Shown here: piece by piece, positions 33,400 to 41,905 of the stretch
Numbering within the stretch: position 1 is the stretch's first letter
How the letters are laid out: every line of letters starts with the position of its first letter
DNA from: Trueperaceae bacterium
GTDB taxonomy: Bacteria > Deinococcota > Deinococci > Deinococcales > Trueperaceae
Assembly (NCBI GenBank): GCA_965213705.1
Contig: OZ243913.1
Span: 1,824,001-1,888,000, forward strand
DNA: 64,000 nucleotides
Direction of reading: 5' to 3'
Made by a program: the position numbers and the translations under genes
Notes under the pieces: model-generated
The model's input: only the letters and a program-made list of their open reading frames with translations
Database searches by the model: none
Told to the model about the DNA's origin: nothing

Positions 33400-33888
33400 T
33401 TACTCTTTGTTTCCTATAATTAGAAACTCGCCCACAAACGTACCGTCCCGCCTCAAGGTGACGTTACCCGCCAGCCCTTCGTCTCCAGAACTATAAGTGG
33501 CTGTACCCGCGGCAGTATAGTCGGGCGCGGTTGCAAAGTCGATGGTTACGTCGAAGTCGTAGGTTGCAAAGTTAGAAGTTGCGGCGACGGTGCCACTCAA
33601 CTCCCCTACGTCACCCTTGAAGTCGAACTGGTTCCCGGACGTCAAAGTGCCTGACAAGTTCCCGTTCGTAACGGTAAAGGTTGTCAAGCCGCCAATGAAA
33701 ATGTCATTGGTTTGATCATCAACTATAAAGGTACCGTTGTAGGTTCCGTTCAGGTCCTGTAGGGAATCACCTGGAGGGTTGTTGCCCCCGCCGCCACCCG
33801 GACCCGGTGTCCCCCCGCCACAGGCAGCCAGGACGAGGGCCGTCAAGACCAAAACGAAAGCTTGCTTCAAAACGCGTGATAGTTTCAT
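33400..33888 (-). CDS. Hypothetical beta-rich lipoprotein inserted in the suf operon
   Basis: AAAGGAG RBS, lipobox LAAC, Gly/Pro linker; AT-richer codon usage. Confidence 0.8.
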   Translation of the reverse strand: MKLSRVLKQAFVLVLTALVLAACGGGTPGPGGGGGNNPPGDSLQDLNGTYNGTFIVDDQTNDIFIGGLTTFTVTNGNLSGTLTSGNQFDFKGDVGELSGTVAATSNFATYDFDVTIDFATAPDYTAAGTATYSSGDEGLAGNVTLRRDGTFVGEFLIIGNKE

Positions 33889-33942
33889 TACCCCACACTT
33901 CCTTTCTCAAGGTTGTACAGTTATACCCGGTAAGCTGCTTAA

Positions 33943-34195
33943 TTACCTGTAGGCGTCCTTTCTATGAGCTACGCGCAAGATACTAACAACGCGCTCTCGA
34001 GTGTCAACTTCGTAAATGACTCGGTAGTCCCCTACGCGCACTCGGTAGGCTTCTGCTCCTTAGTTTCACCACACCCCGCCCAAAGGGGTCTTCCGCCAAA
34101 CCCTCGAGGGCAACAACAATCCTTTCGCTCGCTTCTCGACTCAACCTCCGCAGCTCCTTCTCCACCTGAGGATAGAAGCGCACCCTGTAACTCAT
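33943..34195 (-). pseudogene. relE: RelE/ParE toxin, frameshifted near 34060
   Basis: MSYRV...LAEDPFGRGVVKL, then in a shifted frame GAEAYRVRVGDYRVIYEVD...ILRVAHRKDAYR* (stop 33943-33945). Confidence 0.85.
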
Positions 34196-34205
34196 AAGCT
34201 GTAAC

Positions 34206-34412
34206 TCACACCTCGAGCCGCTTTTTCATTTCCTCCAACGAGACAAACTCCCCACCCTCACTCCGGCGCCGTTGGATGATTTCTACATCCTGAGCGTCGA
34301 GCGCTTTGTCTAACAGTTCCTCATATTCTTCGAGAGAGAGCACGACGTGCGTGCGCCTGCCTTCCGTATCGGTGAGGTACTGGTGGTTGGTTGTACCGGC
34401 TGCGTCTGCCAT
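34206..34412 (-). CDS. Putative antitoxin of the RelE module
   Basis: YLTDTEG.RTHVVLSLEEYEELL...FVSLEEMKKRL; immediately upstream of relE. Confidence 0.8.
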   Translation of the reverse strand: MADAAGTTNHQYLTDTEGRRTHVVLSLEEYEELLDKALDAQDVEIIQRRRSEGGEFVSLEEMKKRLEV

Positions 34413-34423
34413 AAGTTCGGGAG

Positions 34424-34468
34424 AAAGGATAAAGTGGAAAGACCTTTATCCTTTCCACTTTATCCTTT
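34424..34468. repeat. Perfect 18-bp inverted repeat of 7-nt periodic purine units
   Basis: aaaggataaagtggaaag (34424-34441) / ctttccactttatccttt (34451-34468). Confidence 0.8.
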
Positions 34469-34469
34469 T

Positions 34470-35921
34470 TTAACCTACGCTTCCTTCCATCTCGAGTTCA
34501 ATCAGTCTATTTAGCTCGACCGCGTACTCCAGCGGCAGTTCTTTCGCCACCGGCTCCAAAAAGCCGCGCACGATGAGTGCTGCTGCCTCAGCTTCGGGCA
34601 AACCGCGGCTCATGAGGTAGAAAATCTGCTCGTCGTTGAGCTTGCTCACCGTCGCCTCGTGGCCGACGTGGGCGGTTTTTTCGTTGATTTCGATGTACGG
34701 GTAGGTGTCGGTCTTGGCCGTCTCGTCTAAAAGCAGCGCGTCGCACTCGACGTTGCTGCGCGCGTACTTGGCACCCTCGTGAATTTGGACGAGGCCGCGG
34801 TAAGACGAGCGCCCGCCGCTCTTGGAAATCGACTTCGAGACGATGGACGAACTCGTGTTGGGCGCGGCGTGGACCACTTTGCCGCCCGCGTCTTGCCACT
34901 GGTTGTCGCTGGCAAAAGCAATCGAGAGGATTTCGCCCCGCGCGCCCTCACCCATGAGGTAGCACGACGGGTACTTCATCGTCGTTTTGGAGCCCAAGTT
35001 GCCGTCCAACCAACCCATCGAGGCGTTTTTGTGGACTATCGCGCGCTGGGTGACGAGGTTGTAGACGTTGTGCGACCAGTTCTGAATCGTCGTGTAGCGC
35101 GCTTGCGCGCCCTCTTTGACGACGATTTCGATGACGCCCGAGTGGAACGAGTCGGTGTTGTAGGCGGGCGCGGTGCACCCTTCGATGTAGTGAAACTTGC
35201 TGCCCGGCTCCCCGATGATGAGGGTGCGCTCGAACTGCCCCACGCTCTGCGCGTTGAGGAGAAAGTAGGCTTGCAGCGGCACTTCGATTTCGACGCCCGC
35301 GGGGACGTAGACGAACGAGCCGCCCGACCAGACCGCGCTGTTGACCGCCGCGAAGTAGTTGTCTTCGGGTGGGACTATTGTGGCGAAGTGCTCCTTGAAA
35401 ATCTCCGGGTGCTCTTTCAGGCCGGTGTCGGTGTCCAAGAAAATCACGCCGAGCTTTTGCCACTCTTCTTTGAGCGAGTGGTAGACCATCTCGGACTCGT
35501 ACTGCGCGCCGACGCCCGCGAGCATCTTCTGCTCGGCCTCGGGGATGCCCAAGCGCTGGTAGGTGTTGCGCACCTCTTCGGGGATGTCGTTCCAGTCGTT
35601 GGTCGTGCCCTTGCGGTCTTGCGGACGGATGTAAAAGTAAATCTCGTCGAAGTTCAGACTAGACAAGTCCGGCCCCCACTTGGGACGGCCTTTTTTCTGG
35701 GCGATGTCGAAGGCCTTGAGGCGAAAGTCCAGCATCCACTGGGGCTCGTCTTTGTAGTAGCTGATTTGCTCGACGACGCGCTTGGTAAAGCCTTTCTCCG
35801 AGCGGAAGGCGTAGTCCTCGGCCATTTTGAAGTTGTACTGCTGTTGGTGCTGCATCCCGGTGAGCTTGTGGGCGTCGGGGTGAAAGTCGCTTTGGTTGGG
35901 GTTGGGCGGCATGTCTGCCAT
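34470..35921 (-). CDS. sufB: Fe-S cluster assembly protein SufB
   Basis: GVGAQYESE, GQFERTLI, YIEGCTAP, HEATVSK and ELPLEYAVE motifs; no intein. Confidence 0.96.
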   Translation of the reverse strand: MADMPPNPNQSDFHPDAHKLTGMQHQQQYNFKMAEDYAFRSEKGFTKRVVEQISYYKDEPQWMLDFRLKAFDIAQKKGRPKWGPDLSSLNFDEIYFYIRPQDRKGTTNDWNDIPEEVRNTYQRLGIPEAEQKMLAGVGAQYESEMVYHSLKEEWQKLGVIFLDTDTGLKEHPEIFKEHFATIVPPEDNYFAAVNSAVWSGGSFVYVPAGVEIEVPLQAYFLLNAQSVGQFERTLIIGEPGSKFHYIEGCTAPAYNTDSFHSGVIEIVVKEGAQARYTTIQNWSHNVYNLVTQRAIVHKNASMGWLDGNLGSKTTMKYPSCYLMGEGARGEILSIAFASDNQWQDAGGKVVHAAPNTSSSIVSKSISKSGGRSSYRGLVQIHEGAKYARSNVECDALLLDETAKTDTYPYIEINEKTAHVGHEATVSKLNDEQIFYLMSRGLPEAEAAALIVRGFLEPVAKELPLEYAVELNRLIELEMEGSVG

Positions 35922-35987
35922 GTTCGGTTCCTCTCGAGAGTGTGAAGTCCTTAGTCCGTTGTCGCGCGCTGTTGCTGCCGCGCGCTG

Positions 35988-36743
35988 TTACGCCGCGACG
36001 AGTTCGCGAATCCAGTCGTAACCCTTAGCGTCGAGTTCCTTGGCGAGTTCCTTGTCGCCGGTCTTGACGATTTTACCCTTCACCATGATGTGAACCACGT
36101 CGGGCACGATGTAGTTCAGCAAGCGCTGGTAGTGCGTGATGACGAGCGCCCCGAAGTTCGCGCCCCGCGCGGCGTTCACACCCTGTGACACGACCTTGAG
36201 CGCGTCGATGTCGAGGCCCGAATCGGTCTCGTCGAGGATGGCGTACTTGGGCTCGAGCACCAAGAGCTGTAAAATCTCGCTGCGCTTTTTCTCGCCGCCC
36301 GAGAAGCCTTCGTGCAGGTTGCGCTCGATGATGGAATCGTCCCAGTTGAGCTTTTTCACAGCGTCTTGAAGCTTGTTGTAAAACTCCATGACTTCGATTT
36401 CGTCGCCTTCGTCGCGGCGCGCGTTGAGCGCCAGGCGCAAAAAGTTGGCAATCGACACGCCGGGTACTTCGACCGGGTACTGAAACGCCAGGTACAGCCC
36501 GGCGCGGGCGCGTTCGTCGGGTTCCATTTCCAAGACGCTCTCGCCGTCGACGAGCACGTCGCCCTCGGTGATTTCGTAGCTCGGGTCGCCCGCGATGATT
36601 TTCGCCAGGGTCGACTTGCCCGAGCCGTTCGGCCCCATGAGCGCGTGAACCTCGCCCTTGGGAACGGTCAGGTCGATGCCGCGCAAAATCGTCTCGCCGT
36701 CGACGATGCGGGCATGAAGGTTGCGAATTTCTAAGCTGCTCAC
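35988..36743 (-). CDS. sufC: Fe-S cluster assembly ATPase SufC
   Basis: [32 protein letters not shown] and ITHYQR motifs. Confidence 0.96.
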
Positions 36744-39111: not shown

Positions 39112-39270
39112 GTCCGGCGAGACCGAAAAGCAGTTTCGCTCACGCCGCTGAGGCACCGACCGTGAACTCGTATGAAGGCCCGAGGCTTGTGTGTCGCGGG
39201 TGGGTCGGGTATTGTCGAGTGTGAAGTTTTACACAGAAGCTTCGCTCATTTCACTTTAGGAGGCGCGTTC

Positions 39271-40026
39271 ATGCACAAACTTTTCATCCTCTTGTTGGCC
39301 CTTACGTTCTCTCTCGGCTTCGCGCAAGACTTGGGCGGCCGTACCATCACGGTCGGGTCGGACACGACGTATCCGCCTTTCGAAACGGTCAACGACGCCA
39401 ACGAAATCGTCGGCTTCGACGTAGACGTCGTCAGCGCGGTTTGCGAAAAAATCAACTGCATACCGGAATTCAAAACCTACGCTTGGGACGGCATCGTCGC
39501 GGCCATCGGCGCGGGCTCGTTCACGGACTTCGACATGGTCGCCTCGGGCGTGTCCATTACGCCGGAGCGCGACGAAACGGCCGACTTTAGCGAGCCTTAC
39601 CTCGTCGTCAACCAGGCCATCACCACGCGCGTCGAGGACGAAGCGCTCACCGAGGCCGACTTTGGGGCTACGGACGGCGAGCTGCTGTTAGGCGCCCAAC
39701 TCGGCACCACCAACGCCGACCTTGGCCGCGACCTCGTCGGCGACGACCGCCTGCGCACCTACGACGACTTCAACAGCGCGGTCTTGGCCCTGCTGCAAGG
39801 CGACGTCGACGGCGTCATTATCGACGGCGTCACGGCCGACGCTTTCGCCAACCAGTACGCGGGCGAACTCGTCGTCAACATCACCGGACTGAGCAACGAC
39901 CCACTCGGCTTTGTGTTTCAACCGGGCGACGAACTTATCGACGCGTTCAACGCGGGCCTCGAGCAAATCAAAGCGGACGGCACCCTGGACGCCCTCACCG
40001 AAAAATGGTTCGGCGCGGCCGAGTAA
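39271..40026 (+). CDS. Polar amino-acid ABC transporter substrate-binding protein (family 3)
   Basis: AGGAGG RBS, signal peptide, YPPFE, GFDVD, ITPER and FSEPY motifs. Confidence 0.92.
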   Translation: MHKLFILLLALTFSLGFAQDLGGRTITVGSDTTYPPFETVNDANEIVGFDVDVVSAVCEKINCIPEFKTYAWDGIVAAIGAGSFTDFDMVASGVSITPERDETADFSEPYLVVNQAITTRVEDEALTEADFGATDGELLLGAQLGTTNADLGRDLVGDDRLRTYDDFNSAVLALLQGDVDGVIIDGVTADAFANQYAGELVVNITGLSNDPLGFVFQPGDELIDAFNAGLEQIKADGTLDALTEKWFGAAE

Positions 40027-40087: not shown

Positions 40088-40156
40088 AAAAAAAAGGCGT
40101 GCGGCCTCCCAACCGCACGCCTCCTTGCACTTGCAGGTACTCCCGTACTCTTCCTT
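40088..40156 (-). ncRNA. Candidate sRNA A (about 69 nt, GGA/GGGAGG-rich)
   Basis: GTGACA-17-TATGCT promoter (40191-40163); 10-bp terminator stem with loop UUGGGAGG and U8 tail; no ORF. Confidence 0.65.
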
Positions 40157-40256
40157 AGCTTCAGCATACAACACCTAGTGGTTTATGTCACTAGCAGATG
40201 CCTCACCTGGCCCTTAACTTGTTGCTTTTAAGTTTCGCCGCCGGGGCTCGAGCGGC

Positions 40257-40334
40257 AAAAAAAGGGTTTCGCGAGGGAGGGCGCGAAACCTGGGGAAGAG
40301 GGGGAGGTAATTGGGAGGTTTACCTCGCGTCCAC
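40257..40334 (-). ncRNA. Candidate sRNA B (about 78 nt, CCUCCC loops)
   Basis: TATCCT -10 (40346-40341); hairpin GAGGUAA-ACCUCCCAA-UUACCUC, C-rich linker, terminator with CCCUCCCU loop and U7 tail. Confidence 0.65.
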
Positions 40335-40744
40335 GGGCTGAGGATAGCGGCGAGCGTCTTACAGAAAACTTACTCGGGCCAAGGTGTAAAAAACCTTACA
40401 GGGGCGGTACGCGCTTGCTGCGGCATGGTTTGTGGTGTGATTTATAGTGCGGTTTGCAACGGCCCTTCCTCGACTTTACCGAGGCAAAAACACTTTTGAC
40501 GTTTTCAAAAGGGGGTGGCCCTTTGGGCCGGGGAACCTCAAACGCGGCTCTCACGAGAACGTCTCAATCCCTCAGCGGAACTGTTGCAGGTTTCCGGACG
40601 GTGAAGTGTGCAAGCGCTCACCCGCCGAAAACCCCGTTTCGGTGACAAGCTTTGTTGACGCCGGCCGTTTTGCCGCCGGTTGTTTACATGTCCCGTTATT
40701 CCCTCGGCGAGGGCCGGCTCGAGCTGGAGGAGGCTGCCTTCAAC

Positions 40745-41905
40745 CTAACCGCCCGCCCGCTCGCCTACCCGCCGCTCGCGCAGTTCGGTCGAAGAGATGT
40801 CCGCGCGAAAGGCCGTCTCGGGCAGTTCTTCGAACAGGTCCCGGTAACGTGGCGGCAAGTTCAGGGTGCGTAACGTTTCGAAACCGGCCGTGCCCCGCCG
40901 GCCAGCCACCAGAAACCGCGCCCCGCGCCGCCGCAGACCGTCCAGGGCGGCGTGAAGCGCGGCGGGGTCGTTGCTGTAAAAGCGTGGCGCAACCAAGCGC
41001 GCGGCGGTGTCGGCACCGACGACGAACACCGTGTTCGGAAACAGCTCGGCCTTGGCGCTGAACAGGGGGGCGCGGCTGAGTACGATAGGGCCTGAGCCCG
41101 CAAACTGCAGGGCGCGCCGCCGCGCCTCGGCCGGGTCGATGGCGGCTTTGTCGGCGTTGACGAGCGGCAACTCGAAAAAAACCGGCTGCCCCAAGTGTTC
41201 CTGGGCAACCCGGGCGAGCGCGCGGTGACCGTCGTGCAGCGGGTTGAACGAGCCCGACAACAGCGCCGCGCCGCCCAACCCCTCGCCCAGTGCCCCGTCC
41301 GTTTGTAGACGCCCGTCGGGATGAATGGCGAGCCAGTCGAGACCGCCTGCGGCGAGTTGTGCCAAAGCCGGGACTGGTCGGTAGCCCTGCTCGAGCTGCT
41401 CACTCGCCGCCAACGGCAGCTCGGAAAAAACGATGCCGCAAGCCTCGGCGACGGCCTTGAGAATGACGAGGCTTACCAACTCTTCTTCGCCGGCCCGGTC
41501 GCGCAAGCCTTTCGCCAGGGTGAGGCGGTAGGTGACGGTGCCGAGCGCGTCCTGCACGGCCACGGCGCAACGGTGCTCGCCCCGTTTGGCGCGGTCGGTG
41601 GCGATGGTCGCCGTCGCGCCGAGACCGAACACGGGAAACTGCGGCCCCAACACGCTCGCCCGGGCCCGCGCGGTCGCGGCCAGCGCCTTGGCGACCTTGA
41701 CCGACGTAAACCGTTGCGGGGTGAACCCCACCGCTTCGACGAGCGACCCGGGGCTGTAGCGGTCGGTCGCCTCCAGCACGGTGCGCGACGAGCCGCCGAC
41801 GCTGTGCAACCACATCAGCGCTTGCGAGCCCGCACCTGCAAAGTTCATCACCATGCGGTGCGGAGTGGCGTGGATGCGCTCGAGCTGCGCCGCGATGGCC
41901 GTCAT
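40745..41905 (-). CDS. CinA-like domain fused to an HxGH nucleotidyltransferase (NadD/NMNAT-like)
   Basis: N-terminal GGSSRTVLEA...ATDRAKRGEH; C-terminal SGSFNPLHDGH, VGADT and DISSTELR. Confidence 0.75.
   Translation of the reverse strand: MTAIAAQLERIHATPHRMVMNFAGAGSQALMWLHSVGGSSRTVLEATDRYSPGSLVEAVGFTPQRFTSVKVAKALAATARARASVLGPQFPVFGLGATATIATDRAKRGEHRCAVAVQDALGTVTYRLTLAKGLRDRAGEEELVSLVILKAVAEACGIVFSELPLAASEQLEQGYRPVPALAQLAAGGLDWLAIHPDGRLQTDGALGEGLGGAALLSGSFNPLHDGHRALARVAQEHLGQPVFFELPLVNADKAAIDPAEARRRALQFAGSGPIVLSRAPLFSAKAELFPNTVFVVGADTAARLVAPRFYSNDPAALHAALDGLRRRGARFLVAGRRGTAGFETLRTLNLPPRYRDLFEELPETAFRADISSTELRERRVGERAGG

Follow-up and report, generated by a model that had tools for sequence, protein, structure and literature searches.

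A C-rich small RNA family of the Trueperaceae and a linked G-rich RNA that is a candidate sponge

By comparative sequence analysis, RNA B is a trans-acting C-rich sRNA whose family is conserved across the Trueperaceae, and its neighbor RNA A is a conserved RNA gene that is separately promoted and terminated. We consider it probable that A is a sponge for B, which it would remove by means of docking sites that it shares with mRNA leaders. The best-supported family-wide target of B is predicted to be the 5' end of a PAS-PAS-GGDEF mRNA.

RESULTS

Organization of the locus

The window analyzed here is a 64,000-nt stretch of a Trueperaceae genome. The genome that contains it is designated G000, and a second genome of the same genus G001. 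A preliminary description of the window had proposed two minus-strand units, each with a −10 box and an intrinsic terminator, and had assigned the promoter GTGACA-17-TATGCT to A. Every one of these features was present where it had been placed, the A promoter at 40191-40163. The elements of the locus are as follows, in window coordinates.

40745..41905, minus strand: cytidylyltransferase-like gene upstream of B (Pfam CTP_transf_like)
40358..40373, minus strand: GTAAG-N6-GTAAG direct repeat, predicted activator box of B, 11 nt before the −10 element
40341..40346, minus strand: −10 element of B, TATCCT
40257..40334, minus strand: RNA B, C-rich sRNA of about 78 nt, with hairpin 1, an unpaired linker, a terminator hairpin and a U tail
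40311..40318, minus strand: B loop 1, CCUCCCAA, predicted partner of the A terminator loop
40294..40300, minus strand: B linker seed CUCUUCC, complement of the 5'-terminal GGAAGAG of A and of PAS-PAS-GGDEF leaders
40274..40281, minus strand: B loop 2, CCCUCCCU, whose CUCCC core does not vary among the aligned sequences (21 of 21)
40194..40210, minus strand: imperfect palindrome of 17 nt upstream of the A −35 element, a candidate operator, identical in G000 and G001
40163..40191, minus strand: A promoter, sigma70-type, GTGACA-17-TATGCT (GTAACA-17-TATGCT in G001)
40088..40156, minus strand: RNA A, stand-alone G-rich RNA of about 69 nt, candidate sponge for B, identified by fold, homologues and stem covariation
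40140..40154, minus strand: A 5' module, GGAAGAG (40154-40148) and GGGAG (40144-40140)
40105..40112, minus strand: A terminator loop, UUGGGAGG, exact complement of B loop 1
39172..40026, plus strand: amino-acid ABC substrate-binding protein gene, convergent with A (Pfam SBP_bac_3, NCBIfam)

The cytidylyltransferase-like gene was also found 5' of B in G001, G017 and G108. Neither RNA had been recognized as belonging to a described family, and our searches agree: the Rfam 15 covariance models gave no match at the gathering threshold in the window, and only sub-threshold matches were obtained around the locus and in ten homologous loci. Among the sequence sets that carry this stretch no RNA set was listed; two DNA-like contig sets from a single study contain it unchanged and may be its source, so that they do not bear on expression.

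Other features of the region were recorded. Window positions 40500-40600 hold the remnant of a small repeated element that has several copies in G000 and G001 (also at loci L008, L009, L010 and L012) and is missing from G001 at this locus. Suf Fe-S cluster genes (sufC, sufB and sufD, by eye) occupy window positions 33400-36743; a lipoprotein gene and a small toxin-antitoxin pair of the RelE-like type interrupt them. A CRISPR array with a 29-nt repeat is present at about 2200480-2202300 of G000 contig C1.

RNA B is conserved across the Trueperaceae

The predicted fold of B is more stable than that of shuffled sequences (z −4.1), and its CUCCC terminator loop is one of two among the 213 terminator-like hairpins of G000. 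The pattern of hairpin 1 was found in 40 of 128 family genomes, and the reversed control pattern in none. A covariance model of B (R1) built from 21 sequences matched 96 of 128 Trueperaceae genomes, often two to five times per genome. This tally includes genome G111, without which it is 95 of 127; no other claim made here depends on G111. In the B alignment 95.5% of cells are paired, and 7 of 10 pairs of the terminator stem have changes on both sides. Stem 1 is nearly invariant, partly because the search pattern demanded it. Each loop contains CUCCCA or CUCCCU.

Among named genomes, a scan returned 35 stretches, consisting of 27 full B units and 8 matches to the first hairpin only, the latter in unrelated taxa. 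Eight of the 27 full units are in records titled Trueperaceae; as a whole, the full units came from records labelled Trueperaceae or Deinococcota or lacking a taxon name, plus one titled Ferruginibacter. Outside the family, R1 gave weak matches in 25 of 138 genomes (best E value 3.6e-7), and the combination of box and two loops was absent from the 20 non-family loci inspected. G000 itself has two further B-like units on contig C1 (3347592-3347670, minus strand, and 2741029-2741122, plus strand). One of them lies behind a GTAAG box and the other behind a site that we take to be CRP-like, as judged by the CRP consensus. A search of G000 for Hfq gave no match.

Other genera share a second B subfamily, characterized by a CCAUCUCCUCUCU linker (five loci). 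At loci L033, L034/L135 and L143, B is duplicated in tandem at a distance of about 190-260 nt, and every copy has a box of its own; one record with tandem B, titled Ferruginibacter, probably represents a misbinned contig. At ten loci of genus g6, the main B copy mostly faces, in convergent orientation, a gene for a phosphate ABC ATPase that is pstB-like by eye.

B belongs to a GTAAG promoter class

A box and a −10 element precede 44 of 47 distinct B units, and in 33 the repeat is exact. The box lies 11 nt before the −10 element at 16 sites of G000 and 10 nt before it at 4, and no G000 site was found at 8, 9 or 12-15 nt. Among 23 listed GTAAG-class sites in this genome, 18 precede a called gene. 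Nine of these 18 genes encode GGDEF, EAL or HD-GYP enzymes, one encodes a pilin and one RlpA; as background, crude calling gave about 3,520 genes for the whole genome, and the GGDEF matches number 30. Because nine c-di-GMP enzyme genes and a pilin gene stand behind the same promoter class, we infer that B is part of a c-di-GMP and pilus regulon. The proposal that B is a signal-controlled C-rich sRNA thus has comparative support in its family-wide occurrence, its covariation and the conserved box and −10 element.

The box had been likened to OmpR/PhoB sites. Its geometry is that of OmpR/PhoB regulons, an 11-bp direct repeat replacing the −35 element, but none of the nine OmpR-type regulator genes of G000 has the box upstream. 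A gene for a TPR protein was present in 48 of 128 genomes and adjoins a B copy in many genera. In G000 the protein has 568 aa (contig C1, about 2875218-2876924, plus strand; locus L307, 719-2425), and its C-terminal domain is highly conserved. This domain gave a weak alignment with OmpR winged helices (P 0.0014, probability 17%) and falls in an atlas cluster with 15% Trans_reg_C; a search by sequence returned no solved structural relative. It looks, weakly, like an OmpR/SARP winged helix. The GTAAG box may be read by this linked TPR-winged-helix protein and not by a classical OmpR/PhoB regulator. The accessible part of PMC1978522 contains no description of the GTAAG box.

RNA A is a separate RNA gene

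The fold of A also exceeds that of shuffled sequences (z −4.6) and includes a strong terminal hairpin followed by a U tail. Among the 213 terminator-like hairpins of G000, A alone has a UGGGAG loop. Its G-rich elements are the 5'-terminal GGAAGAG, GGGAG and a GG-UUGGGAG-CC hairpin. In the G001 homologue the two hexamers of the promoter and the three G-rich elements are all present, and a change in the stem is compensatory. Nine further copies came from inspection of B neighborhoods, and a model of A (R2) was trained on 11 sequences. Over the 128 genomes R2 gave 15 strong matches, 4 of them outside the training set (G011, G093, G095 and G100); among the weak matches G070 was dropped and two fell on mRNA leaders, and G012 was added by eye. 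In the A stem 7 of 12 pairs changed on both sides while the loop stayed unchanged, and TAnnnT lies 8-12 nt upstream of the G-rich 5' end in 16 of 16 typical copies. Co-conserved loops and compensatory stem changes in relatives had been suggested as checks on the A-B pair. The stem changes are those given above for A and for the B terminator, and all 16 genomes with a typical A also carry a B match.

Outside the family, the seven R2 loci inspected were unconvincing. A metagenome scan with the A pattern (34 stretches) gave, among the matches listed, one PAS-GGDEF leader, the rest being chance-like purine-rich sequences. A was also considered as a peptide gene, and this was rejected since the homologues share no conserved reading frame.

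The A locus might be only a terminator, possibly bidirectional, of the convergent ABC gene, or its product a C-rich 3' UTR on the plus strand. The plus strand does fold well (z −7.2) and displays C-rich loops, and the minus-strand U tail of G001 is imperfect. However, both minus-strand promoter hexamers are kept across a diverged spacer, homologues elsewhere follow co-directional genes and have their own −10 element and U tail on the G-rich strand, and each hairpin has one to five G-U pairs on that strand. On balance this explanation is very unlikely. The several GGA motifs of A, some of them in small loops, would suit a sponge for a Csr/Rsm-type protein. Csr/Rsm RNAs have repeated ANGGA hairpins, whereas the conserved parts of A are UGGGAG and GGAAGAG. 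Moreover, the host protein of such a system, CsrA/RsmA, was not found in G000: this genome is 98% complete and gave no CsrA (PF02599) match, although control searches matched. A role of this kind is highly improbable.

A is much patchier than B, with a total of 20 genomes in 8 genera. Typical copies lie within 400 nt of B in 13 of 16 cases (11 upstream and 2 downstream), the loci of the other three containing no B, but this count is inflated, since 11 of these copies came to light through inspection of B surroundings or through a pattern requiring a −10 element. The A-B pair occurs in three neighborhoods: after the TPR gene, after an unrelated gene (G023) and after the cytidylyltransferase gene (G000). 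Thirty-three further loci downstream of the TPR gene comprise 4 with a diverged A, all in genus g6 and three with a clear −10 element, and 29 without A. The homologues, the stem covariation and the linkage speak for the earlier view of A as a co-located G-rich partner of B. Against a sponge is the fact that most B-positive genomes have no detected A, the model placing it in 16 of 128; the three copies without a B nearby also count against it.

In three g12 genomes B is missing but A still follows the TPR gene, and the next gene is LexA-like (by eye, three loci). As a regulon operator, the palindrome upstream of A showed no excess over control in G001. A near copy of it lies directly before the −10 element of an argininosuccinate synthase-like gene in G000 (C1:3252994), and the same near copy is present in G001 (C7:2740163).

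Pairing between A and B

The exact 8-nt complementarity reported between the loops of A and B is present (UUGGGAGG versus CCUCCCAA), but the loop is not fully open: in the minimum-energy fold of A it is closed by two U-G pairs, which leave only GGGA unpaired. Opening all 8 nt costs about 2.8 kcal/mol. The 8-bp loop-loop contact is the best accessible A-B site in G000 (−10.1 kcal/mol, to which the 5' seed adds about −6), whereas in most other genera the contact between the 5' GGAAGAG and the linker is stronger (−10.6 to −15.4 in genera g11, g23, g32, g33 and g40). The genus of G000 has the longest loop match (8 nt) and a decayed 5' match.

For accessible pairing with B, A ranked second among 213 terminator-ended 69-mers. 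The accessible-site energy was reached by 10 of 200 shuffled A sequences, and the cofold energy of A and B (−13.1) was equalled by 65 of 300; since shuffles often pair as well, energy alone is weak evidence for A-B pairing. We also ranked the linkers of 12 genera by their fit to G-rich 5' ends, a descriptive measure and not a test because related genomes are not independent. The own-genus linker was among the best 3 for 12 of 16 A copies, and for PAS-PAS-GGDEF leaders it was among the best 3 in 10 of 24 and the best 5 in 21 of 24; the A 5' ends of G000 and G001 ranked their own linker 12th and 11th of 12, which counts against the sponge reading in this genus.

Specificity is limited by the anti-SD-like character of the B motifs, so that any SD-like RNA matches in part. 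A might be an independent G-rich sRNA or an SD-like decoy for anti-SD elements in leaders, for ribosomes or for an RNA-binding protein, its match to B being incidental to the anti-SD nature of B. The performance of the shuffled sequences is consistent with such a decoy, as are the occurrence of A apart from B in three genomes and the rpsA-like genes (S1 identity by eye) that follow the locus in several genera. However, GGAAGAG is not an SD sequence and yet matches the B linker, A 5' ends track genus-specific changes of the linker, A remains beside B across rearrangements, and there is no CsrA. We regard an incidental match as unlikely.

G-rich docking sites on mRNA leaders

The A-like pattern also matched the 5' ends of PAS-PAS-GGDEF leaders. 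The 20 genomes matched consisted of 2 with A, 9 with a PAS-PAS-GGDEF leader, 2 with a G8-domain gene, 1 with a reversed B and 6 with chance matches. The PAS-PAS-GGDEF gene is present in 72 of 128 genomes and was not found in G000 or G001, a further point against the sponge reading in this genus; judged from its length, the C-terminal part of the protein is probably EAL. Among the 30 best-scoring copies, GGAAGAG, the complement of the B linker, occurs just after the −10 element in 22 and as a one-letter variant in 5; the remaining three leaders were out of range, at a contig end and degenerate, respectively. It is not an SD sequence, occurring in 6 of about 3,520 start regions of G000. GGAAGAG was rejected as a general start-site motif, as only 12 of 573 G000 sites follow a −10 element. 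An mRNA target scan of G000 with crude gene calls returned candidates only.

B had been proposed as a repressor acting at Shine-Dalgarno sequences. This fits genus g6, whose PAS-PAS-GGDEF leaders measure 22-23 nt, with overlap of the site and the SD sequence in 7 of 7 cases; repression by B is predicted there. In no other genus was such overlap found, and the best-supported site is the mRNA 5' end; where leaders are long, its distance to the start codon is 90-240 nt. The idea of a general SD switch in these long leaders was not supported: when the 5' site was blocked, SD accessibility fell by at least 0.2 in 6 of 22 leaders and rose in 1, with little change in 15. B may protect long leaders from RNase J, which is encoded in G000.

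A 5'-terminal site raises an alternative in which A binds B without being a sink: B would protect the A 5' end from RNase J or process it, and A or the A-B complex would be the effector, A thus being a target or partner of B. The GGAAGAG seed is at the predicted 5' end of A as well as of the leaders, RNase J is available in G000, and RoxS protects yflS mRNA at its extreme 5' end, according to the accessible part of PMC5419742. A has no conserved ORF or sequence beyond the B-matching elements and the stem, however, leaving little room for an effector role, and we consider this alternative fairly unlikely.

Another RNA with several candidate sites for B is the transcript leader of a peptide gene that is divergent from the TPR gene and encodes a conserved hydrophobic peptide of 32-33 aa. 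In G000 (contig C1, 2874996-2874640, minus strand; locus L307) this leader is 240 nt long and contains seven GGGAG/GGAAGAG motifs. Five to eight motifs of this type were counted in 12 of 12 loci inspected, and they are present in G000 and G001 as well.

Two further observations concern the PAS-PAS-GGDEF gene. A CRP-like site is centred near −41.5, and the first PAS domain of the protein has a LOV-like motif without the cysteine (by eye).

DISCUSSION

A model for A and B

Since A shares the 5' GGAAGAG and the UGGGAG element with the leaders, it has the appearance of a target mimic. The genomes compared show the structure and promoters of the two RNAs, their conservation and linkage, and their complementarity; transcription, binding and titration are assumed in the model that follows, as are the sign of the effect of B and the identity of its activator. 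A signal would switch on B through the GTAAG repeat, together with c-di-GMP and pilus genes, and the C-rich loops and linker of B would dock on G-rich sites in mRNA leaders. A, transcribed from its own promoter, would offer B the same docking elements as the leaders. Binding would begin in G000 with the 8-bp loop-loop kiss and continue with the linker, and sequestration by A would set a threshold on free B.

A broader and more tentative possibility is an Hfq-independent c-di-GMP circuit in which the TPR-winged-helix factor activates B. B would read a two-part code, the 5'-terminal GGAAGAG and the UGGGAG hairpin loop, on three RNA classes, namely the GGDEF mRNA leader, the small-peptide leader and RNA A. 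Here A would be a mimic that began as a copy of the 5' end of such a leader and has since travelled with B; in the genus of G000 it would have shifted from pairing at the 5' end to a longer loop-loop kiss after loss of the GGDEF target.

The locus brings together candidates for a regulator with its promoter class, for one conserved target and another with multiple sites, and for the decoy, and the genus-specific matching changes predict exact mutant pairs. If correct, the sponge reading would extend the logic of C-rich sRNAs and G-rich sponges from Firmicutes to Deinococcota, would tie it to c-di-GMP and pili, and would provide an example in which the resemblance of a sponge to the mRNA target of its regulator can be traced.

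Comparison with known systems

Neither Rfam nor the literature searched contains a base-pairing sRNA family or sponge for Trueperaceae. The literature covered, mostly openly accessible papers, gives no account of A, B or the GTAAG box. A distant relative could be present in sRNA tables of Deinococcus or Thermus.

Several systems resemble B in part; the comparisons follow the accessible parts of the papers cited. The csRNAs of the CiaRH system of Streptococcus are likewise multicopy two-hairpin sRNAs with an unpaired anti-SD linker, and in their promoters a direct repeat of 11 bp precedes the −10 element by about 10 nt (PMC3091779). However, the csRNA box is NTTAAG-N5-TTTAAG (PMC3091779) and that of B is GTAAG-N6-GTAAG, so that B lacks the csRNA signature. 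B also has no anti-start-codon CAU conserved beside the seed in all members, and no Rfam match. The cuckoo RNAs of Alphaproteobacteria (RSs0680/CcsR) share with B the adjacent hairpins, repeated anti-SD loops and tandem paralogues (PMC4615179). Cuckoo RNAs are defined by CCUCCUCCC in each loop of 2-4 adjacent hairpins. The B loops are CUCCCA or CUCCCU and not CCUCCUCCC, which sets B apart from this group, as do its long unpaired linker seed and a host without Hfq. The RoxS-yflS pair resembles B and its predicted target in having the sRNA site at the extreme 5' end of the mRNA (PMC5419742); in the case of B the site is a prediction and belongs to a GGDEF gene, and in genus g6 it extends into the SD sequence.

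The closest counterparts of A are RosA and RsaI. RosA of Bacillus subtilis is a G-rich sponge of RoxS and FsrA of about 229 nt (PMC8216469). In the parts of that paper accessible to us, RosA is like A a stand-alone G-rich RNA with its own promoter and terminator and with regions complementary to a C-rich sRNA, one contact being dominant. At the sequence level A is a stand-alone unit with promoter and terminator, and it has at least two G-rich regions complementary to a co-occurring C-rich sRNA, as in sponges of the RosA/RsaI type. RsaI of Staphylococcus aureus likewise binds C-rich sRNAs (RsaE, RsaG and RsaD) through G-rich tracts, but has an mRNA-directed C-rich region that A lacks (PMC8216469). 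A differs from RosA in its length of about 70 nt, its position next to its partner, the placement of one site in the terminator loop and another at the 5' end, and its leader-like architecture. It also belongs to another phylum with other regulators and has no sequence or Rfam relation to RosA. Homology to the RosA or RoxS/RsaE families is not indicated, as neither A nor B has an Rfam match and their distribution is not that of Firmicutes. On the best reading of these sequences, the A/B pair would work like RosA and RoxS while being unrelated to them in sequence, and would be distinguished by the physical linkage of the two RNAs and by the target-mimic build of A.
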